In this document: positions 30,876-49,633 of the stretch, one piece after another
Position numbering within the stretch: the first letter of the stretch is position 1
Layout: each line of letters opens with the position of its first letter
DNA from: an uncultured Verrucomicrobiae bacterium
Lineage (GTDB): Bacteria; Verrucomicrobiota; Verrucomicrobiia; Limisphaerales; Palsa-1400
Reading direction: 5' to 3'
Assembly: GCA_963707025.1 (NCBI GenBank)
Contig: CAVPOM010000016.1
Span: forward strand, 32,001 to 96,000
DNA: 64,000 nucleotides
The notes under the pieces: model-generated
What the model saw: the letters and a program-made list of their open reading frames with translations, nothing else
Databases searched by the model: none
Told to the model about the DNA's origin: nothing
Translations under genes and position numbers: made by a program

Positions 30876-31307
30876 ATGGGTGATCGGTCTTAGGAGCGCT
30901 GCTGGGTGTCCCGGCCGAAATGCCGGATCAGTGGATCAGTTCCGTTTTCCCGAGGCGTCCCCGCCTGTAAATCGGCGCCAGCAATCCTCGTTCCCACTGC
31001 CAGGCATCTTGCTGGAGACCAAGTTGGGGTCATGTACTAATAAATTGTTGCTCAGAGGTGAAAAGTGAAAAATAAATCCAAAGGCGGCACGAGTCCTGAA
31101 TCCAAGCCAGAAAACGAACATTCCATCCAGAACCTGCGCCGACGTTACAGAGCGATGGTCATTCGCAGTCTGATTCTGCGAGGTCCAAAACTCTCTTTAT
31201 CCGGTCCGTTATTGCCCTCCGCTCGCCCTCGGAAAACAGATGTTCAAACGGCGCAAGCGGAAATAAATACACTCCGTCCCCTCTCCCGACGAGAGTTGAA
31301 AATTTAC

Positions 31308-32758
31308 CACAGCCATCCCACAGGAAATTGGAAAAAAGTGTTGGCTTGACCATTTGAACCTGCCACAAGGCAGGCATGAAAAACAAAAAAATCAAACCAA
31401 CACGGTCCCGGTTTAACGTTTTGCGCCAGATTTGCAATCTCATTCCTGCGCATGAAGTCTCCAAAATAGCGCGGGAGACCGGGGCTCTGGATAAGTCGCG
31501 CACCTTCAGTCCGTGGAGTCACACGGTCAGTTTGCTGGACGCGCAACTCACCCATTGCATCGGACTCAACGATCTGTGCGACTCGCTGCAATTGCATTCC
31601 GGGCCGCTGTCCACTTTGCGCGGCGCCAGCGCCCCCAGCCGCAACGGCCTCTCCCACGCCAACCGGGAGCGTCCGGCCCAGATGGCCGAACAACTCTTCT
31701 GGCGGGTCCTGGAGCATTTGAAAGCACAGACGCCCGGCTTTGCCGCGGGCCAGCGCCGTGGCCCCGCCTTCCGTTTCAAGATGCCCATCCATGTGATTGA
31801 TAGCACGACCATGGAACTGGTGGCCAACTGCCTGGACTGGGCCAAGCACCGCCGGCGCAAGGCCGCCGCCAAAACCCATATGCGGTTGAATCTGCAGAAT
31901 CTTTTGCCCGGTTTTGTCATTGTGGACACTGCCGCCGAGCACGACAACCGACGGGCGCGGGAACTGTGCGCCGACTTGAAGAGCGGCGAAATCGCCTTGT
32001 TCGACAAGGGTTATGTGGACTTCGGCCACTTGCGGGATTTGGACGGGCGCGGGGTCTTTTGGGTGACGCGGGCCAAGGAGAACATGGGCTATGAGGTGGT
32101 GCGGAAAATGCCCGCCTCCAGAGACCCGAAGATTTTGCGCGACGAAGTGATCGTCCTGAGCAACGAGAACAAACCCGCGCCGGAGTTGATGCGCCGGGTG
32201 GTGGCGCTGGTCGAGATTGATGGAGAGGAACGGGAAATGACCTTCCTGACCAACAACCTGGAGTGGAGTCCGCGCAGCGTGGCCGACCTTTACCGCTGCC
32301 GCTGGCAGATCGAAGTCTTCTTCAAACAAATCAAGCAGACCTTGCAGTTGGCGGATTTTCTGGGCCACAACGCCAACGCCGTGCGCTGGCAGGTGTGGAC
32401 GGCGCTGTTGACCTACGTGCTGTTGCGCTACCTCAGTCACCTCTCCAACTGGGCGCACAGCTTCACCCGGCTGTTCACGATTTTGCGGGCGGCGCTCTGG
32501 GAGAAATATGATCTGCTCAATTTGCTGGCGTGCTATGGGACAGCAGGCGGCAGCTTTCGCCACTTGGCGCGGCCCGAGCAGGCGTATTTCCCCGGCTTCC
32601 AATAAAGCTATGGGACAGCACACGCGCCCAAACAGGCGCATACCAAACCCAAAAGCCAAACTCGGAAAAATCAAAATCTCATTTTACCCCGAAGACCAAT
32701 TAAACCCTTGCAAATGAACAGGTCAGCACCAGACTTTTCCCCTTATGAGACGGGTGTG
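31308..32758 (+). mobile_element. IS4-family element, copy 1 (1451 bp)
   Basis: Ends CACAGCCATCCCACAGG / CCTTATGAGACGGGTGTG; 9-bp TSD AAAATTTAC. Confidence 0.95.
31376..32605 (+). CDS. IS4-family transposase
   Basis: IDST, FDKGY, YRCRWQIEVFFKQIK (YREK motif). Confidence 0.95.
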   Translation: MKNKKIKPTRSRFNVLRQICNLIPAHEVSKIARETGALDKSRTFSPWSHTVSLLDAQLTHCIGLNDLCDSLQLHSGPLSTLRGASAPSRNGLSHANRERPAQMAEQLFWRVLEHLKAQTPGFAAGQRRGPAFRFKMPIHVIDSTTMELVANCLDWAKHRRRKAAAKTHMRLNLQNLLPGFVIVDTAAEHDNRRARELCADLKSGEIALFDKGYVDFGHLRDLDGRGVFWVTRAKENMGYEVVRKMPASRDPKILRDEVIVLSNENKPAPELMRRVVALVEIDGEEREMTFLTNNLEWSPRSVADLYRCRWQIEVFFKQIKQTLQLADFLGHNANAVRWQVWTALLTYVLLRYLSHLSNWAHSFTRLFTILRAALWEKYDLLNLLACYGTAGGSFRHLARPEQAYFPGFQ

Positions 32759-40226: not shown

Positions 40227-40565
40227 ATGCCATCCGACATCTTCCAGGCCAGCCGTTGGACCAGCGGCAATCATTTGTTCCCCACGGTCGTCGAGGTCAC
40301 CGACAAATCGGTCATGCGCCGCAAGCGTGCCTGGTTCAATGTGGATGAAATGAGCATCACCATTTCCAAAGTCGCCTCCATCCACATCAAAACGGGAATT
40401 CTCTGGTCCAAAATTCTCATCGAATCCAGCGGGGGGAGCGATCCGATGGCCAGCCACGGCCACACCAAGGCCGACGCCCGCCGCATCAAGGATTTGATTG
40501 AAAGCTATCAACATCGCGGCCCCGCCGGGCCGGCCCCGGATTCTTCCCCTGCCTCGCAATCTTAA
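40227..40565 (+). CDS. Bacterial PH-domain-like small protein
   Basis: FQASRWT.GN.LFP, E.SI.ISKVAS..IKTG.LWS.I.IES.GG. Confidence 0.65.
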   Translation: MPSDIFQASRWTSGNHLFPTVVEVTDKSVMRRKRAWFNVDEMSITISKVASIHIKTGILWSKILIESSGGSDPMASHGHTKADARRIKDLIESYQHRGPAGPAPDSSPASQS

Positions 40566-40747
40566 TCCTAATCTTAATCATAATCCCATCTTCCACTTGG
40601 CCTTCCCCACTGGCGGAAAGAGATTAAGATGACGATTAAGATGAAGATGACGATCACGATTATGATGATGGAGCAGGACCCGCATCCCGGCGCGATTAGA
40701 TCATCCCCCGCATTGACTTGTCGGCGCGCCGAGTTCATATTATGGCA

Positions 40748-41590: not shown

Positions 41591-41992
41591 TCAATGGCTG
41601 CGCGGGCGAAAGGTCAGGCGGAAATCCTTGGCGGTGGGCGCGGGGGCGGTTATGGCCAGGGGAAGGGTCTCGTGGCCGAACAAGGTGCAGGGCGGTGGCT
41701 CCATGACAAGGCCCAGCGAGACGCCCTCCCGGTCCAGCCAATCCACCTGGTAAATAATCGTTTTCGCGGTGGCGCCGAGGTTTTCCACGTCCACCTGGAA
41801 TCTTAAGTAGCCTTGTGTCGGGGGCATGTCTTGAATTCTTTTGACTCGTATAATGCCGTTCAGGGCGGGATCCACCGTCACGCGTTGGTCCGGGAGCGTC
41901 TCGGCGGCCCCGACCGTTTCGCCCGGATGCGGCGCGGGAGCCGAGCACCCGGCCAGAACGAGGCACATCACCAGCAAAGGAGCGGATTTCAT
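41591..41992 (-). CDS. YcfL (DUF1425)-like lipoprotein
   Basis: LAGC lipobox; Y...W.D..G; AP.P.A.DFRL. Confidence 0.7.
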   Translation of the reverse strand: MKSAPLLVMCLVLAGCSAPAPHPGETVGAAETLPDQRVTVDPALNGIIRVKRIQDMPPTQGYLRFQVDVENLGATAKTIIYQVDWLDREGVSLGLVMEPPPCTLFGHETLPLAITAPAPTAKDFRLTFRPRSH

Positions 41993-42323
41993 CTTCCGGG
42001 CAACCTAACCCAACCGCGCCGCAGATTCCATCAGAAACAGAAAGGAAAGAGCCGCGCTTCCCGCGCGCGGCCCGCCCGGTTCCTCCACTTCCCTATACGT
42101 CAGCCGCGCCCACATCTTGCAATGCCGTCCCCGCCTGCTTGGCGCGCGCCTCCGGCCGTGCGGCCCTTGATGCCGCCACCATCCGATTCCCTTAATCTTA
42201 ATCCTAATCTTAATCTCATTCCGTCGCCCCACGAAGCGGGGAGAGGGTTAGGGTGAACTGCGGATTTCCCAATTCGGGATTGGGTCATGGTGCATCATCG
42301 GGTTGTTTTTTTGATCAAACCAA

Positions 42324-43745
42324 TTATTTTTTGGTTTTTTGGTAAGCCATTCCACCGAAACGAGCGCCAGGCACTCCCTCAATTTCACCTCGTTCCGCCA
42401 TTTTACTCAAAATGCGTTTCATTTTATCGCTGTCTTTTATAAAGGTAATTTCACGGGCTTTCTTGTTCCGAATACTATCATTTTTTTCAAGATATTTCAT
42501 AATAGTTTGCTCCGGAGAGGCAAGAGGTTCGTGACGAATAGTTATCAGTAAATCATTATCCCGTTCTTCAATTTCTGGGTCTTTCAATCCGAGTTGGTTC
42601 ATTTTATCGAATGCAGTGTTTAACCCTTCTCCAACATCCCTATTCGGCGGGTCTGGAAATTTATTTAGCAAACGAACAATCGCGCCATTTCGAGCGAAAC
42701 GTTCACGGAGTATGTTTTCCGGAGTTACATGCGCTGGCAACCGACCAGGGCTTTGAACCTCAACACGATTATCGAAAATACGAACATGAATATCATCTGC
42801 GATGCTGTAGTCTCTGTGGATGACCGCATTTGTAATGATTTCGTGAAGCGTTTCTTGAGGATATTTAATTGGTTCCAGTCCTCCACTTCCAAGGTGTGAT
42901 ATTTTTTCAATTTCAGAGATTGTCTCCGCAACTGTTTCTTTAATCTGTTTATAAAGATGCCCCTCAACAGTAATTGGAATGAATGTTAGAACATCACGAA
43001 ACCCCTCTGCATCTTGAGTTTCATAACGATATATTTTTATGCCGCAACGTTTCGGGAGTTGCGCTTGTGGCTCTTCTGCGAACAAGAGCAATCCGGCAAC
43101 AGTTGGCATCTCATTTGTAAGTAATGATTGTTTCCGGAGCCAAGGCTCTGGCTGGGCGTTTGGAACAACGAATTTAAGGTAATCTCTTGTAACGGACGAT
43201 TCTGTGATAATTGTTTTAGGCACCGGAACGGTATGGCCTTCAAATGAAGTAACCCCCTTTGTGAACTCCAAACGACGCAATTCCTGTGCTGACTTTTGAG
43301 GTAAGTTCTGAGCGGCGCGTCGTATATACGCAATGCCGTCAGTAGCTTTAATAATTTCACGAGTTCGATTAACTTGAATGTGTAAAACGACCCCTTTCCT
43401 ACGTGGACAGCGTAAGAAATCATACTGGAAATCCCTGCCAAGCGGGAAATGCTTTTCAAATGGTTGAACATGACCGTTAGCGGCTTCAATATCGGCGAAC
43501 CCGGACCACTCACGCTTCTTGACATTCCCTCCAAGGAGTTGTTCGGAGATTCCTATATAAAGATCGCCTCCATCGGTATTTGCAAATGCGGAAATGGTAT
43601 GGCTAAGTTTTGATGGCGTAATGGGGACGGCTTTAACATCGGAGAACTGGCCTTCTTCAATTTGGGTGATTGCCTCGGCCTCGGTCTCGTTAATTTCGGT
43701 GACAGGCTTTTCGCTGGTAAAAAGACTTGTTTGTGATTCGGACAT
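42324..43745 (-). CDS. Schlafen/AlbA_2 + HATPase_c_4 + wHTH protein
   Basis: EEGQFSDVK and SAFANTDGG.LYIG (AlbA_2); E.ITNAVIHRDY, F.NRVEVQSPG, RN, G.GL (HATPase_c_4); C-terminal wHTH; visibly AT-rich. Confidence 0.85.
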   Translation of the reverse strand: MSESQTSLFTSEKPVTEINETEAEAITQIEEGQFSDVKAVPITPSKLSHTISAFANTDGGDLYIGISEQLLGGNVKKREWSGFADIEAANGHVQPFEKHFPLGRDFQYDFLRCPRRKGVVLHIQVNRTREIIKATDGIAYIRRAAQNLPQKSAQELRRLEFTKGVTSFEGHTVPVPKTIITESSVTRDYLKFVVPNAQPEPWLRKQSLLTNEMPTVAGLLLFAEEPQAQLPKRCGIKIYRYETQDAEGFRDVLTFIPITVEGHLYKQIKETVAETISEIEKISHLGSGGLEPIKYPQETLHEIITNAVIHRDYSIADDIHVRIFDNRVEVQSPGRLPAHVTPENILRERFARNGAIVRLLNKFPDPPNRDVGEGLNTAFDKMNQLGLKDPEIEERDNDLLITIRHEPLASPEQTIMKYLEKNDSIRNKKAREITFIKDSDKMKRILSKMAERGEIEGVPGARFGGMAYQKTKK

Positions 43746-43758
43746 ATGTTTTATTACG

Positions 43759-43796
43759 TTCCGGAAATACGATATATCAGTTTCCGGAAATGTCAA
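43759..43796 (-). promoter_or_regulatory. Putative sigma70 promoter with two TTCCGGAA palindromes
   Basis: Minus strand TTGACA-16-TATCGT; palindromes at 43759-43766 and 43781-43790. Confidence 0.55.
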
Positions 43797-43879
43797 ATCG
43801 GAAGTCCGATTTTAACGGAAGTAACGTTACTGATTACAAAAGCAGTTACTTAGAAGCGGTAAATAAACGCGAATGTCCG

Positions 43880-43908
43880 TTGACTACGGCAAGCGGTTGC
43901 GGTATATT
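43880..43908 (+). promoter_or_regulatory. Putative sigma70 promoter for the small ORF and transposase
   Basis: TTGACT-17-TATATT, 6 nt upstream of ATG 43915. Confidence 0.6.
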
Positions 43909-43914
43909 TGAACC

Positions 43915-44076
43915 ATGAAAAATAAACACGCGCAAGCATTAGGGAGGCTCGGCGGATTGGCCGGGACGGGAAAGGCAAAGGCTCGCAAGGTGACAAGCGA
44001 GCAAGCACGGGCCGCTGTAATGGCCCGTTGGAATAAGCCGGGTGCAAGGAAATCAGATCAAAAAGTGAAAACGTAA
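43915..44076 (+). CDS. 53-aa basic protein (KN.HA.ALGRLGG...ARW type)
   Basis: Below the ORF-track cutoff; MKNKHAQALGRLGGLAGTGKAKARKVTSEQARAAVMARWNKPGARKSDQKVKT. Confidence 0.75.
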   Translation: MKNKHAQALGRLGGLAGTGKAKARKVTSEQARAAVMARWNKPGARKSDQKVKT

Positions 44077-44194
44077 AAACAAAGGCCATGCCAGTGTATT
44101 CAGCACTGGCATGACCGCAACTAAAGGCTTTCGCCTAAAGTCGGAATCTCGTTGGATTCACCGACAGCTTAGAGCAAAGGCCGGAAAAGGTCAA

Positions 44195-45139
44195 ATGGTT
44201 TGTCATCGCTGTCAAACAGAAGCATTTAAATTCGGAATCAATGCCCAGGGCTTTCAACGGTATCGCTGCAAAACTTGCGGCAAAACGTTCGCGGATATTC
44301 AACGCCCTCTCGGTTCAATGCGGGTTGACTCGGAAAAAGCGTACGAGGTCATCCGACTGCTTTGCGAGGGAACGGGCGTCCGGGCCTGTGAACGCCTCAC
44401 AAGATTAAACCGGCGCACGGTGTTGAGCATTTTGGAAGTCGCGGGCCGGAAGTGCGAGCAACTCATGGCGGACAAAGTGCGGGGCGTCCAGGTCAAAGAA
44501 GTCCAGATTGATGAGATTTACGGGTTTGTTGGCTGCCTACAGCAGAACACGACCGGCCCGGAGGATTACAGGCGCGGGGAACAATACGCATATCTGGCGA
44601 TTGACCGCGCATCAAAATTCATCATCCATGCCTATATTGGCAAACGCGACACGGAGAACAGCCGAGACTTTTTGAAGGGATTGAAGCCAAAGATCGCCGG
44701 ACGGTTTCAACTCACTAGCGATGGGTTCAGAGGCTACAGGGCGGTTTATGGCGGTGTTGGTTCAATCTTTGGAGAACAAGTGGATTATGCCACAGAGGAA
44801 AAAACCTTTGGGCAGGCGCAGCGTGGCGTGGCCAGGCGGTTCAACCCGGTTGTGTGCCTCTCTGTTCACCGCAAAGCCCGCATTGGAACGCCGGACATGG
44901 CTCGCGCAACAACCAACCACGCAGAGAGAACGAATCTGTCTGTACGCCTTTTTAATCGCCGGTTCACCCGCAAGACGATGGGATTCAGCCGGAAGCTGGA
45001 AAATCACCGCTGGTCGGTCATCCTGCAATCCATGCACTTCAATTGGTGCCGGGTGCATTCCGCGCACAAACAAACCCCGGCAATGGCGCTTGGACTGGCG
45101 GACCATGTTTGGACAGTGGCGGAATTGCTGGCGGGATAA
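44195..45139 (+). CDS. IS1-family transposase (single ORF)
   Basis: Zn ribbon CHRC...QRYRCKTCG, HTH, DDE motifs VQIDE / LTSDG / HAERTN, RRFTRKT.GFS(R)K. Confidence 0.9.
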   Translation: MVCHRCQTEAFKFGINAQGFQRYRCKTCGKTFADIQRPLGSMRVDSEKAYEVIRLLCEGTGVRACERLTRLNRRTVLSILEVAGRKCEQLMADKVRGVQVKEVQIDEIYGFVGCLQQNTTGPEDYRRGEQYAYLAIDRASKFIIHAYIGKRDTENSRDFLKGLKPKIAGRFQLTSDGFRGYRAVYGGVGSIFGEQVDYATEEKTFGQAQRGVARRFNPVVCLSVHRKARIGTPDMARATTNHAERTNLSVRLFNRRFTRKTMGFSRKLENHRWSVILQSMHFNWCRVHSAHKQTPAMALGLADHVWTVAELLAG

Positions 45140-45756
45140 TGGGTTCATTTGCCATTGACTCGCTCTCGTTTTGGCGGTACGGTGGAAGCATGTTATTGAG
45201 CAACACGGAAATCCAAAAAGCGATTGATGAGCACGTTTTGTTCATCACCCCCTTTGAAGAAAAGAAGCTAAAGGGGGCCAGTTACGATCTGGCATTAGGC
45301 CGAGAGGCACTTGTCAGCAATCGTGATGAGAAGGTATTTCTGGGGCCAGATCGCACTCATAGTCTTAAATTGGAAGCGGGCGATTTTGCCCTGGTGCTCA
45401 CCAAAGAATCCCTGAAATTCCCAATGGACATGTGCGGGATGATTGGAATGCGCAGTTCATTGGCCCGAATGGGGCTTATACTTTTGCACGGAATGCAGAT
45501 TGATCCAGGTTTTGAAGGATATTTGCGTTTTGGACTTTACAACGCATCTCCCCGCAAAATCACCCTTGATTATGACGATGATATTTGCATGATTGAATTT
45601 CACAAGCTGGTCCAAGCCGCAACCAAACCTGCCCCGCGAAATGAGGACTTAATTCAAGGCAAAATTCCAGAGGTGGACAGACAGTTCTTACGCACGCTAG
45701 AAACCACCAGCTTGAGTGCATTGTCACAAGACATGAGAACCATGTCTGTGAGTGTT

Positions 45757-47249
45757 TGAGGTGGACCCCATCCTTTAGACCACGGAGCGCATGAAATAAG
45801 CGCGACTTTTGCCGATTGCTGTCATTACTAATTGTAGTTGACTACTGTTCATTCCGTGTTTCAAAACCCTTTCGAAAGAGAGAACGAGCGATGCGGAGCA
45901 CTGCCCGTCCTCCCTCTCCGTTTTCTTAGGGTTCTCAACTCTACCGCCGCAGGCGGTCTGATTTCAAGCCTTTTCCTGCCGCCTGCCTCTCTGTCAAGTG
46001 CTGCGATCGCTCCTGCCTCTGGCAGGTTGCATCGCTTCCCATTTGGCCGGTTGGGCTCCATGCGTGCCGGGATCAAAATACGCGTCCGCCGGCGTCGCAT
46101 AGCCCAACGCCTGGTGCGGTCGTTCCCGGTTGTAGCCGTCAAACCACCGGCCCAGTCCGCGCCCTGCCGCCAACCCGTCGCCATAGTCTTGCAAATAAAT
46201 GTCCTCATACTTGGCGCTCCGCCACAGCCGCTCGATAAACCGGTTGTCCATCCAGCGACCCCGTCCGTCCATGCTCACGTCCACCCCCGCCGATTCCACC
46301 GCATCAATAAACATCGGGGAGGTGAACTGCGATCCCTGGTCGGTATTGGAAATCAACGGCGCCTGACGCCCCGCCCGCAACGCCGCCTCCCAAGCGTCCA
46401 CACAAAAGTCCGCCTCCAACGTGTTGCTCAAGCGCCATCCCAGCACGTAACGACTCCGCCAATCCATCACCGCCACCAAATACATAAACCCAGTTGCCAT
46501 AGGCACATACGTAATGTCCGAACACCAAACCTGATCCGGTCCCGTCACTGCCAAATTGCGTAACAGATACGGATAAATCTGGTGCCCCATCTCCCGCAGA
46601 CTCGTCTTGGGCTTGGCGTAAATCGCCTCGATCCCCATCAACCGCAGCAGCCGCACCACCCGTTTGCGATTGATGGTCAAACCCTCCCGGCGCAACAGCA
46701 CGGTCAGTTTGCGGCTGCCATAAACCGGGTGGTCCAAATGCATCTGGTCCAACCGCCGCATCAGCGCCAGGTTCTCCTCTGTCTCCGGACAGCACTGGTA
46801 ATAATAACTGCCACGGCACACCGCCAGCAGCTCGCACTGGCGCCGCACGCTGAGCTGCGGATCGGGAGCGATTAAACATGTTAAAGCCCCAGTTGCCTGG
46901 ACTTTTTTTTAAGCCAGTCCAAGTCCACCGTCAGTTGGCCAATCTTCTCATGCAGTTGGGCAATCAACTGTTCCTGATCCTCCGTGCGGGGTTGCCCGGG
47001 CTCAAACAATTCGGGCATGTGATCCCGAATCGTCGCCCGCCACTGCGTGACCTGCGCCGGATGCACCGCATACTCTCGCGCCAATTGCGCGACCGTCTTC
47101 AGCCCCACCAGGGCTTCGAATCCCACTTTGGCCTTGAAGGCCGCACTGTGTCTTTTCCGTTTTGCTTTCATAAGTCTGCTCTTTCTTATCTACAGCAAAC
47201 CGGCAAAAATCGAAACTTACCTGTGGTCTAAAAATAGGGGTCCAGCTCA
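45757..47249 (-). mobile_element. IS3-family element, copy 2
   Basis: Near-identical to copy 1; 3-bp TSD GTT (45754-45756, 47250-47252). Confidence 0.95.
45994..47171 (-). CDS. IS3 transposase OrfA/OrfB (-1 frameshift)
   Basis: As copy 1, with one substitution DWWSRY to DWRSRY. Confidence 0.95.
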
Positions 47250-47364
47250 GTTTCCCAACTGGCAAACACCCAGAAATGGTTTATCATTCCAGGCATTGTT
47301 GCGATTTTGGTGGGCGTTATTACCGCCGTTCTCACTGCCATTTTCAAGAAATAACCCTTTGCGT

Positions 47365-47733
47365 ATGTCTTTCCTGCCAGCCGCACAACGAGAGATAGGC
47401 AAGCGTCAACCGGGGGATCCTGTGCGCATGACGCTGGAATACATGGTGCGCCATGCAGTCGGGAGACATAACGCTGTGCCGTTAAGGGATATTGTGGATC
47501 ATCTGAACAATCAAGGACTGACCGTCACGGAAACTGGATTTCAGCAAACAATCCTCGCAGAATCCAGAAGTGGAGATTATTATATAGGGTCGGGCCACAG
47601 GGGATATTTCCTGATAGACACAATTGACGATGCCCGCGTGATGAAATCTTTTTACGAAGCTCGGATTCGGAAAGAAAACCAAAATCTTAATAATTTGCAC
47701 CGGCAGTCCACGGTCATCGGCTGGATTCTCTGA
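47365..47733 (+). CDS. 122-aa winged-helix-like hypothetical protein (cargo)
   Basis: ATG 10 nt after the Dcd-TM stop; NAV....I...L, helix, IGSG.RGYFLID wing, C-terminal long helix. Confidence 0.7.
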   Translation: MSFLPAAQREIGKRQPGDPVRMTLEYMVRHAVGRHNAVPLRDIVDHLNNQGLTVTETGFQQTILAESRSGDYYIGSGHRGYFLIDTIDDARVMKSFYEARIRKENQNLNNLHRQSTVIGWIL

Positions 47734-48182
47734 AGATCGTTCCGTTTAACCCCCCATCACATCTCCGCCAGCACAATCTGCGAAGTGGCAATGCGTTGTC
47801 GCTGCTTGCCTTAGGAAACAACCCGGAAGCGCACCATGACCCGGGATTGACATGAGTAATAAGTGAGGACTATATTGTTGGCTGGAGCTTAACAACAGAA
47901 ACCCAAAGGTTTTTGCATGCAATCTTTAACACTCTTCCGGCGGCACGTCTGCATCGCCGCTTTATCCGCGTCTCTTTTCGCCCTGCCCGCGGCGGGGCAG
48001 TCGCAGTCCAACAACGCGTTTTCCATCGTTATCAGCGAACCGACCAATGGCTCGGCCTTTGTCAGCCCGGTCACCGTCCATATCACCGCTTCGGTGTACG
48101 ATGCGACGGATGCGGTTGCCTCCGTCGTGTTTTCGGCAAACCCTCCGCCACCCCTGGAAGGGCCCAGTTTGTTGTTGGGAAA

Positions 48183-49633
48183 CACAGCCATCCCACAGGA
48201 AATTGGAAAAGAGTGTTGGCTTGACCATTTGAACCTGCCACAAGGCAGGCATGAAAAACAAAAAAATCAAACCAACACGGTCCCGGTTTAACGTTTTGCG
48301 CCAGATTTGCAATCTCATTCCTGCGCATGAAGTCTCCAAAATAGCGCGGGAGACCGGGGCTCTGGATAAGTCGCGCACCTTCAGTCCGTGGAGTCACACG
48401 GTCAGTTTGCTGGACGCGCAACTCACCCATTGCATCGGACTCAACGATCTGTGCGACTCGCTGCAATTGCATTCCGGGCCGCTGTCCACTTTGCGCGGCG
48501 CCAGCGCCCCCAGCCGCAACGGCCTCTCCCACGCCAACCGGGAGCGTCCGGCCCAGATGGCCGAACAACTCTTCTGGCGGGTCCTGGAGCATTTGAAAGC
48601 ACAGACGCCCGGCTTTGCCGCGGGCCAGCGCCGTGGCCCCGCCTTCCGTTTCAAGATGCCCATCCATGTGATTGATAGCACGACCATGGAACTGGTGGCC
48701 AACTGCCTGGACTGGGCCAAGCACCGCCGGCGCAAGGCCGCCGCCAAAACCCATATGCGGTTGAATCTGCAGAATCTTTTGCCCGGTTTTGTCATTGTGG
48801 ACACTGCCGCCGAGCACGACAACCGACGGGCGCGGGAACTGTGCGCCGACTTGAAGAGCGGCGAAATCGCCTTGTTCGACAAGGGTTATGTGGACTTCGG
48901 CCACTTGCGGGATTTGGACGGGCGCGGGGTCTTTTGGGTGACGCGGGCCAAGGAGAACATGGGCTATGAGGTGGTGCGGAAAATGCCCGCCTCCAGAGAC
49001 CCGAAGATTTTGCGCGACGAAGTGATCGTCCTGAGCAACGAGAACAAACCCGCGCCGGAGTTGATGCGCCGGGTGGTGGCGCTGGTCGAGATTGATGGAG
49101 AGGAACGGGAAATGACCTTCCTGACCAACAACCTGGAGTGGAGTCCGCGCAGCGTGGCCGACCTTTACCGCTGCCGCTGGCAGATCGAAGTCTTCTTCAA
49201 ACAAATCAAGCAGACCTTGCAGTTGGCGGATTTTCTGGGCCACAACGCCAACGCCGTGCGCTGGCAGGTGTGGACGGCGCTGTTGACCTACGTGCTGTTG
49301 CGCTACCTCAGTCACCTCTCCAACTGGGCGCACAGCTTCACCCGGCTGTTCACGATTTTGCGGGCGGCGCTCTGGGAGAAATATGATCTGCTCAATTTGC
49401 TGGCGTGCTATGGGACAGCAGGCGGCAGCTTTCGCCACTTGGCGCGGCCCGAGCAGGCGTATTTCCCCGGCTTCCAATAAAGCTATGGGACAGCACACGC
49501 GCCCAAACAGGCGCATACCAAACCCAAAAGCCAAACTCGGAAAAATCAAAATCTCATTTTACCCCGAAGACCAATTAAACCCTTGCAAATGAACAGGTCA
49601 GCACCAGACTTTTCCCCTTATGAGACGGGTGTG
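48183..49633 (+). mobile_element. IS4-family element, copy 2 (1451 bp)
   Basis: Same ends as copy 1; 9-bp TSD GTTGGGAAA. Confidence 0.95.
48251..49480 (+). CDS. IS4-family transposase
   Basis: Protein identical to 31376-32605. Confidence 0.95.
   Translation: MKNKKIKPTRSRFNVLRQICNLIPAHEVSKIARETGALDKSRTFSPWSHTVSLLDAQLTHCIGLNDLCDSLQLHSGPLSTLRGASAPSRNGLSHANRERPAQMAEQLFWRVLEHLKAQTPGFAAGQRRGPAFRFKMPIHVIDSTTMELVANCLDWAKHRRRKAAAKTHMRLNLQNLLPGFVIVDTAAEHDNRRARELCADLKSGEIALFDKGYVDFGHLRDLDGRGVFWVTRAKENMGYEVVRKMPASRDPKILRDEVIVLSNENKPAPELMRRVVALVEIDGEEREMTFLTNNLEWSPRSVADLYRCRWQIEVFFKQIKQTLQLADFLGHNANAVRWQVWTALLTYVLLRYLSHLSNWAHSFTRLFTILRAALWEKYDLLNLLACYGTAGGSFRHLARPEQAYFPGFQ

Follow-up and report, generated by a model that had tools for sequence, protein, structure and literature searches.

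Classical IS1 insertion sequences (ISs) are under 1.2 kb long, have ends that begin with GGT, duplicate 8-9 bp of their target and express InsA/InsAB' by frameshift. IS1595 elements also make 8-bp duplications, and Tn7-like transposons carry defence cargo. Here we describe an element at positions 42283-47841 of a 64,000-nt stretch of DNA (hereafter the window) from an uncultured Verrucomicrobiae bacterium (assembly GCA_963707025.1, contig CAVPOM010000016.1, positions 32,001 to 96,000). The element is most probably an IS1-family unit transposon, in other words a transporter IS (tIS), of a widespread clade; it has a core of two genes and carries three passengers. Within this clade passengers are the rule, they differ between closely related cores, and many of them are known defence or toxin-antitoxin modules. 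The concept of an IS that carries passengers is established in passages of PMC3129680, PMC9330008 and PMC7986276, and those of PMC9330008 also mention Tn3-family transposons with toxin-antitoxin passengers.

The element resembles enterobacterial IS1 in its best-matching transposase family, the N-terminal zinc ribbon, the DDE core, the GGT ends and the 8-bp duplication. It differs from enterobacterial IS1 in that the transposase is encoded by a single open reading frame (ORF) and scores below the family cut-offs, and in its length of 4.1 kb, its three passengers and an extra small basic protein. With the tIS of the IS1595 and IS66 families it shares a single transposase, terminal inverted repeats (TIRs) and passengers inside them; unlike those, the clade described here is IS1-type, and passengers are its rule and not its exception. 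Tn7-like and Tn3-family transposons are also vehicles for defence and toxin-antitoxin genes, but they are much larger and either multi-protein or resolvase-based, whereas here a 1-kb transposase gene and a small ORF accompany 1-3 kb of cargo. Passenger-carrying ISs are already known; what would be new here is an IS1-type clade with passengers and an additional core gene. No IS1-family element with passengers or defence cargo was found described in the full-text literature, a coverage that does not extend to ISfinder and its reviews. ISfinder itself reportedly lists long members of the IS1 subgroup.

The limits of the element can be read directly from the sequence (Table 1). An identical 8-bp target-site duplication (TSD), CGGGATTG, is present at both flanks, and inside it lie 26-nt TIRs that begin with GGT. 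An earlier first-pass annotation of this DNA had proposed both features, together with a single non-composite element of about 4 kb, and all three proposals agree with the present data. Of the 26 positions of the two ends 21 are identical, namely the outermost 11 (GGTCATGGTGC) and the innermost 10; the five substitutions lie between them. An inverted-repeat search returned arms at 42282-42308 and 47816-47842 (27 nt, 81% complementary) as the longest of the region. The 11-mer GGTCATGGTGC has exact matches in the window at the two ends alone; with up to one mismatch it occurs six times, compared with 1.19 expected. One G can be assigned to either the TIR or the TSD, and the reading with 8 bp and GGT gives the longer duplication. 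The 64 kb of the window were scanned for inverted repeats (at least 17/25 identical) that are 0.7-12 kb apart and have an exact duplication of 8 or 9 bp at their outer sides; the pair at 42283-47841 was the sole result. The ends coincide exactly with a break in GC content: the left flank has 0.626 and the short right flank 0.554, against 0.475 and 0.495 for the two parts of the element; the contigs of this genome have 0.57-0.61. No second transposase copy was found flanking the element, which makes it non-composite, and its one transposase has passengers on both sides. The element measures 4063 bp after removal of a nested IS3 insertion and one GTT.

Table 1. Features of the element in the window, and passengers of related elements (designated by L numbers) that match PADLOC models.
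Feature	Position or locus	Strand	Description
Left TSD copy	42275..42282		8 bp, CGGGATTG; read directly; part of the sole TIR+TSD pair of the window
Left TIR	42283..42308	+	26 nt, begins GGTCATGGTGC
Schlafen/AlbA_2 + HATPase_c_4 protein	42324..43796	-	490 aa as listed; Pfam SLFN_AlbA_2; true start perhaps a downstream ATG
53-aa basic ORF	43915..44076	+	conserved accessory gene of the element family; 21-protein cluster; match to family profile hidden Markov model 3.1e-12
Hairpin between small ORF and transposase	44084..44116	+	13-bp stem; -22.7 kcal/mol, z -4.09
IS1-type DDE transposase	44111..45139	+	single ORF, 342 aa; N-terminal CxxC..CxxC zinc ribbon; Pfam/NCBIfam, alignment
Dcd-fold passenger, first 189 codons	45190..45756	+	ORF listed to 45759; DCD fold, E 3e-24; cut by IS3
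IS3-family insertion	45757..47249	-	orfA 46881-47171, orfB 45994-46848; TG..CA ends
Dcd-like gene, final 33 codons (displaced)	47253..47354	+	transmembrane helix; in-frame translation past IS3
122-aa passenger	47365..47733	+	possible winged helix and long C-terminal helix; phrog_2113, 1.1e-6
Right TIR	47816..47841	-	26 nt
Right TSD copy	47842..47849		8 bp, CGGGATTG; read directly
RmrA or RmrT+RmrA (RosmerTA)	L029, L106		PADLOC
PD-Lambda-2_B	L057, L063, L064, L087, L099, L102		PADLOC; HigB-like gene adjacent in three
SoFic	L052, L094		PADLOC
HEC-06/GmrSD	L089		PADLOC
HEC-09/NYN	L068, L096		PADLOC
Type II methylase	L040		PADLOC
HNH nuclease	L030		PADLOC
STAND-type	L103		PADLOC, weak match

The best-matching transposase family in both Pfam and NCBIfam is IS1. 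An alignment of 24 members shows no variation at D134, D204 and E272 or in an R/F/T/R/T..S block that follows the glutamate. The ORF in the window is intact and has all three catalytic residues. The score for NF050000, a joint model of the zinc domain of IS1 and IS1595, is above its cut-off (29.2 bits, cut-off 28), and two relatives exceed the cut-off of Pfam DDE_Tnp_IS1 (L016 with 30.3 and L014 with 26.9 bits). A large protein collection contains 561 homologues at E<=1e-3, the best with 61% identity; where a source (JGI) gives them a name, it is 'IS1 family transposase'. GGT-starting ends with an 8-9-bp duplication are found here as well as in six further elements of the same genome and in 42 external elements. 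The short format of IS1 (about 0.7-1.2 kb, InsA/InsAB' and transposition functions only) is absent, since the element has 4063 bp, a single ORF and three passengers. The features of a tIS or unit transposon, namely passengers within one pair of ends, one transposase and no flanking IS, are all present. Its transposase, zinc domain, ends and duplication most probably place the element in the IS1 family; it departs from the classical form of that family in length, in the single ORF, in the passengers and in the extra core gene. The view that IS1 elements are normally free of cargo holds for classical IS1 but not for this clade.

The same architecture recurs in relatives. The genome of the window contains 13 transposase matches, one of them on this contig. 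Six relatives in this genome have GGT ends and exact 8-bp duplications; they are 3204, 3017, 2964, 2708, 5132 and 5295 bp long and have a GC content of 0.49-0.54. For other species, one genome per species was scanned, which gave at least 603 candidate stretches, at least 580 of them encoding a relative of the transposase. The best 80 of these at least 580 loci were taken with 7 kb on each side, and an element was called when the transposase lay between ends that agree at 18/25 positions or more and are flanked by an exact 8/9-bp duplication. This is the case in 42 of the 80 loci, with lengths of 2367-4674 bp (median 3196 bp), and 41 of these 42 elements have a lower GC content than their flanks. 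Well-preserved relatives such as L031 or L038 have ends that match at 25/25 positions. When left and right flanks were taken from different loci, 69-72 of 80 pairings still had conserved ends, but only 1, 1 and 0 of 80 had a duplication. The first-pass annotation had named homologues with TIRs tight around the transposase and without cargo as the finding that would speak against its proposal; a full end pair with duplication in this tight position occurs in none of the 80 loci. Furthermore, 48 of 49 elements contain no internal repetition of their terminal 18-mer, the single exception being marginal. Because there is no tight pair and because internal copies of the ends are missing, the relatives are unit transposons and not an IS with a stray end. 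The clade spans Acidobacteriota, Planctomycetota, Verrucomicrobiota, Alphaproteobacteria and others.

Remnants and small derivatives of such elements were also seen. Contig C12 has a fragment of the transposase with 88% DNA identity. At G000:C3:297487-297512 there are 26 nt that are identical to the right end of the element and bound a low-GC segment of about 2.7 kb; this segment contains small ORFs and a copy similar to IS3 (78% identity), and no IS1-type transposase and no matching left end were found in it. The segment could represent a relative that has decayed or is non-autonomous and holds different content. Another copy of the end, which has diverged further, is located at C13:23712-23737. 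In the genome of element L031 both ends of that element recur about 550 bp apart (G031:C1:1946119-1946668), which suggests a miniature derivative without transposase, similar to a miniature inverted-repeat transposable element. Five of the six sisters in the genome of the window encode, close to one of their ends, a zinc-ribbon protein of 128-179 aa (L013:22-420, L014:591-1130, L016:251-715, L017:4637-5101, L018:32-418); in one of these proteins a membrane domain annotated as 'superinfection immunity' (PF14373) is present at the C-terminus. The element in the window is without such a gene.

The first-pass annotation had counted the 53-aa basic ORF among the cargo. The comparison of relatives indicates otherwise. 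The 42 external elements contributed 168 ORFs other than transposases, and seven elements of the genome of the window another 22 (ORFs of at least 60 aa, picked greedily by length); these 190 ORFs fall into 135 clusters, of which 121 are singletons; most ORFs have no Pfam or PADLOC match. The largest cluster, with 21 proteins, includes the 53-aa ORF. Its members share a C-terminal motif that is rich in Gly/Lys/Ala/Arg and ends in an invariant Trp, and a profile built from 18 of them matches 28 of the 49 elements. Since the profile is found in so many of the elements, the gene belongs to the core of the family and is not cargo. In 24 of the 42 external elements the small ORF stands alone, begins no more than about 280 bp from the left end and is on the strand of the transposase; in the same-genome element L015 it is located at the corresponding end, and in the window directly upstream of the transposase. 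Two more clusters of small ORFs, in five elements each, look like variants of this family. In two elements the motif is present only as the N-terminus of a passenger with a P63C domain. Passengers of this kind (L059:5908-6933, L078:5912-6886, L096:5820-6866 and L114:597-1775) start with the basic motif, and their sequences suggest that it is a portable module for binding DNA or a partner. An AlphaFold model of one family member, of moderate confidence (predicted local distance difference test, pLDDT, 76.6), is all-helical with four helices. The small protein may be a DNA-binding cofactor or a regulator of transposition.

A stable hairpin follows the stop codon of the small ORF in the window, and its 3' arm contains the ATG of the transposase. 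The hairpin is identical in L109, a sibling from a metagenome; in L113, whose transposase is 55% identical, it shows one compensatory and one wobble change. A promoter scan gave an uninformative seven sites, with 5.1 expected. The core module consists of the small basic protein and the single-ORF zinc-ribbon DDE transposase, with the hairpin between their genes. In this module the transposase would bind both GGT-ended 26-nt ends and move the whole unit; staggered cuts 8 bp apart would generate the 8-bp duplication, and the small protein and the hairpin would modulate the expression of the transposase or its binding to the ends. We infer that the element was moved as one piece by its own transposase.

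Next we consider the cargo. Several pairs of related elements share only the core, with 74-91% DNA identity over about a third to half of their length. L086 and L105 are 77% identical over 43-46% of the length, L029 and L031 82% over a third, and the same pattern is seen in the genome of the window for L013/L014 and L017/L018. The shared parts are the transposase, the end regions and a small ORF; the rest differs. This is in line with the proposal of the first-pass annotation that the cargo is interchangeable, as related cores carry different passengers. Homologous recombination between elements, in the core and ends that they share, is a putative route of cargo exchange and would fit a conserved core with divergent slots. 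L099 and L087, which come from different alphaproteobacteria, share 79-85% of their length including the cargo and have different duplications.

The passengers of the relatives include many known modules. PADLOC models were scored for 96 of the 168 external ORFs (roughly those of at least 100 aa, with the small conserved ORFs left out); at E<=1e-5, 17 of the 96 match, in 16 of the 42 elements (Table 1). These are matches to single models, and mostly to single components rather than whole systems. One of the six relatives in the genome of the window, L015 (C9:13485-16448), carries an RmrA-like gene. According to Pfam, passengers of the relatives include the classical toxin-antitoxin parts HigB, YhaV, HicB, PIN, MqsA with SecB, GNAT and Fic, as well as ClpP-like and proteasome-like proteins. 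As a control we turned to the 3.5-kb flanks of these 42 elements, which contain 244 ORFs of at least 100 aa, and scored a random draw of 150; 11 of them match, several as generic helicases or kinases. The cargo is richer in matches than the flanks both at E<=1e-5 (17/96 against 11/150; odds ratio 2.7, Fisher p 0.022) and at E<=1e-20 (15/96 against 7/150; odds ratio 3.8, p 0.005). This enrichment, for which the first-pass annotation had suggested a test, is real but modest, because the six PD-Lambda-2-like elements are related to one another, the scores refer to single models and not to whole systems, and one flank, that of L088, looks like a defence island. A further family of passengers, 238-355 aa long and without Pfam or PADLOC match, recurs in six elements (L033:5533-6495, L040:2095-3162, L054:3115-3903, L086:5670-6386, L093:5762-6667 and L098:5763-6581); this family may represent a new defence or conflict gene.

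The three passengers of the element itself are a Schlafen protein, a Dcd-like protein and a protein of 122 aa. The Schlafen protein matches phrog_12156 along its full length (7.8e-74) and has distant matches to genes of temperate actinophages. In PADLOC its match is at the domain level, to the pAgo-associated model PDLC02394 (7.7e-18) and two Aga models. In the sibling L109 the order Schlafen gene, small ORF, transposase is kept. The transposases of the two elements are 94% identical, but the Schlafen proteins only 55% over 265 residues; the passenger has therefore diverged much faster than the core, or the allele was exchanged.

The first-pass annotation had recognized a Dcd-fold gene with a transmembrane segment, and the data agree with it: a DCD fold is followed by a hydrophobic tail of 33 aa, from which it is severed by the IS3 insertion. 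The protein is similar to the 'dCTP deaminase' chains 9ln0 and 8y1w in the PDB (E 1e-18). It thus has the dCTP deaminase/dUTPase fold, but unlike dCTP deaminase it has Gly in place of the catalytic Glu and a C-terminal transmembrane helix. The position was set by alignments to PDB entries, in which it is Glu in 4xjc and changed to Ala or Asp in E. coli Dcd (1xs4, 2v9x). The Gly is invariant in all 16 aligned Dcd-like members, and the transmembrane helix is present in all 15 intact ones. The family comprises 125 proteins at E<=1e-10, almost all with 216-232 aa. At E<=1e-20 the gene occurs in one of 401 sampled genomes of the phylum, that of the window, so it is accessory; no such gene was found in viral contigs. 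The acidobacterial element L095 (1416-2501, 3674-4600 and 4672-5025) has a HATPase_c_2+DUF4325 protein on one side of the transposase and, on the other, a Dcd-fold protein of 308 aa, which has no catalytic Glu and a different C-terminal domain, together with an S4-domain protein. The layout is parallel to that in the window, where the genes for an ATPase and a Dcd-like protein likewise lie on opposite sides of the transposase.

The 122-aa protein has a weak match to phrog_2113, a phage family of unknown function, and its neighbours in the protein atlas are mostly small hypothetical proteins of viruses. It had been called similar to a winged helix-turn-helix (wHTH) protein. A single-sequence structure model (pLDDT 69.5) suggests a winged helix, but it gave no fold match at E<=0.001, the weak rows being regulators of the MarR/PadR type; a wHTH-like fold is plausible on the basis of this model. 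Neither the Dcd-like nor the 122-aa nor the 53-aa protein has a match in PADLOC, and the passengers of the window match none of the systems found in relatives (RosmerTA, PD-Lambda-2, SoFic, GmrSD/HEC-06, HEC-09). The first-pass annotation had seen candidate anti-phage cargo on both sides of the transposase. The gene content and the defence cargo of relatives are in line with this, but the support from PADLOC for the element's own genes is the domain-level match of the Schlafen protein. That the three passengers act in phage defence is conceivable, though we would place it somewhat below an even chance.

Several observations weigh against the interpretation as an active, passenger-carrying IS1-type transposon. 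The scores of the transposase are below the cut-offs of Pfam DDE_Tnp_IS1 (23.0 bits, cut-off 24.1) and of the NCBIfam IS1 model NF033558 (78 bits, cut-off 100). Between the two ends there are five mismatches in 26 positions. No TIR+TSD pair was called in 38 of the 80 external loci. Eleven of these 38 have no GGT-ended pair, and in seven of the 11 a contig end is close to the transposase; three have a good pair of ends without exact duplication (L066, 3793 bp; L090, 2935 bp; L041, 2805 bp), and the remaining loci have only pairs at chance level. The element is single-copy in its genome, as are three external elements in theirs, and two identical copies at different sites were not seen in these four genomes; low copy number fits a spread mainly between genomes. 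The flanks were searched in 30 relatives for the empty site, a check that the first-pass annotation had suggested, and none was found, including in the nearest species. In that species (G003, 89% identity) the match stops at about 42154 and continues with an unrelated kinase gene; the synteny ends about 120 bp before the insertion point. The contigs of four public read runs, when compared with 41800-48300, cover almost wholly the IS3 and IS4 parts; none of them spans the element or the IS3, and they speak neither for nor against the interpretation. As to the cargo, the own passengers match no complete PADLOC system, all three have phage homologues, the Dcd-like protein exceeds the cut-off of the NCBI dCTP deaminase model TIGR02274 (100.4 bits, cut-off 92.8), and the units in the enrichment are not independent, since elements are kin and some flank matches lie in apparent defence islands. 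Finally, the element may be inactive now, with IS3 disrupting a passenger.

The last point leads to a first alternative, namely that the element was inserted once as a unit and has decayed to an inert, gene-carrying scar. The single copy, the imperfect ends, the IS3 inside, the transposase fragment on C12 and the lone right end on C3 without transposase are all compatible with this. The nested insertion is clearly defined, with an orfA (HTH), an orfB (rve integrase core), TG..CA ends and a 3-bp target duplication, GTT (45754-45756 and 47250-47252). About 35 other near-full-length copies of this IS3 in the genome have at least 99.4% identity, which indicates that the insertion is recent. This recent date, the intact transposase ORF with its catalytic triad and a duplication that is still exact argue against a fossil, and we consider it a contender of rather lesser probability.

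For the three own passengers, the main alternative to defence is a role as toxin-antitoxin genes or as regulators derived from phages. They could be selfish stabilisers (toxin-antitoxin or addiction modules) or phage-derived genes that aid persistence or regulation, with the Dcd-like protein as an enzyme of nucleotide metabolism. The toxin-antitoxin parts in relatives, the matches of the three passengers to phage protein families and the mostly viral atlas clusters nearest to the 122-aa protein are in accord with this view, as are the score of the Dcd-like protein for TIGR02274 and the position of halovirus Dcd homologues next to thymidylate synthase. However, relatives also carry defence genes without addiction logic (GmrSD, SoFic, NYN/HEC-09, methylase, HNH). 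The Dcd-like family has Gly for the catalytic Glu throughout and a membrane anchor that a metabolic Dcd does not need, and its occurrence in a single genome of the phylum sample marks it as accessory. We regard this alternative as less likely than not; toxin-antitoxin and defence roles overlap, and the two views do not exclude each other.

It is improbable that the element belongs to the IS1595 family, in which passenger-carrying ISs are already known. The two families are related and share the N-terminal zinc domain covered by NF050000, but the IS1 model scores far above the IS1595 transposase model, both for the window (78 against 19 bits) and for L099 (69 against 21 bits), and the DDE domain that Pfam recognizes is DDE_Tnp_IS1, not that of IS1595. 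The idea that the outer repeats and the duplication arose by chance around a short IS, which the imperfect ends and the abundance of short inverted repeats (94 pairs) might suggest, is very improbable in view of the sole TIR+TSD pair in 64 kb, the GC break at the ends, the lack of internal end copies and the recurrence of the architecture in 42 of 80 relatives compared with 0-1 of 80 controls.

The IS1-type transposon lies in a region that is a hot spot of insertions. An IS4-type element with a 409-aa transposase is present in two copies in the window (48183-49600 and 31300-32700); the first of them interrupts a gene for a secreted protein that starts at 47917 and adjoins the IS1-type element. 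A third copy is located inside L017 in the same genome. The first-pass annotation had referred to a further element ('element A'), but neither another IS1-type transposase nor another TIR+TSD pair was found in the window. A stretch of low GC content at about 31-38 kb was considered as this element and rejected, as it contains IS4- and IS3-type copies and unrelated genes. Just to the left of the insertion site, at 42191-42256, there is an AT-rich short repeat of the form AATCTTAATCCTAATCTTAATCT, which also occurs at about 40560-40640. Repeats of this type are dispersed and intergenic and are found at many places in related genomes, for example with eight matches in G015.

Taken together, it is close to an even question whether the at least 580 loci represent an undescribed, phylum-spanning clade of IS1-related unit transposons, in which a core of small protein and transposase shuttles defence and toxin-antitoxin modules in exchangeable slots and in which the unannotated passengers are a compact mine for new defence genes. 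If this is true, the candidates would include the Glu-less membrane protein with Dcd fold, the Schlafen-ATPase, the family that recurs in six elements and the proteasome-like and ClpP-like passengers. Small and clearly bounded carriers of defence genes would provide a cheap rule for discovery: everything between the ends minus the core. For the taxonomy of mobile elements, IS1 would join the families with passenger-carrying ISs, and a second conserved core gene is indicated. Such elements would also explain the spread of single defence genes among distant phyla with no need for phages, plasmids or large islands.

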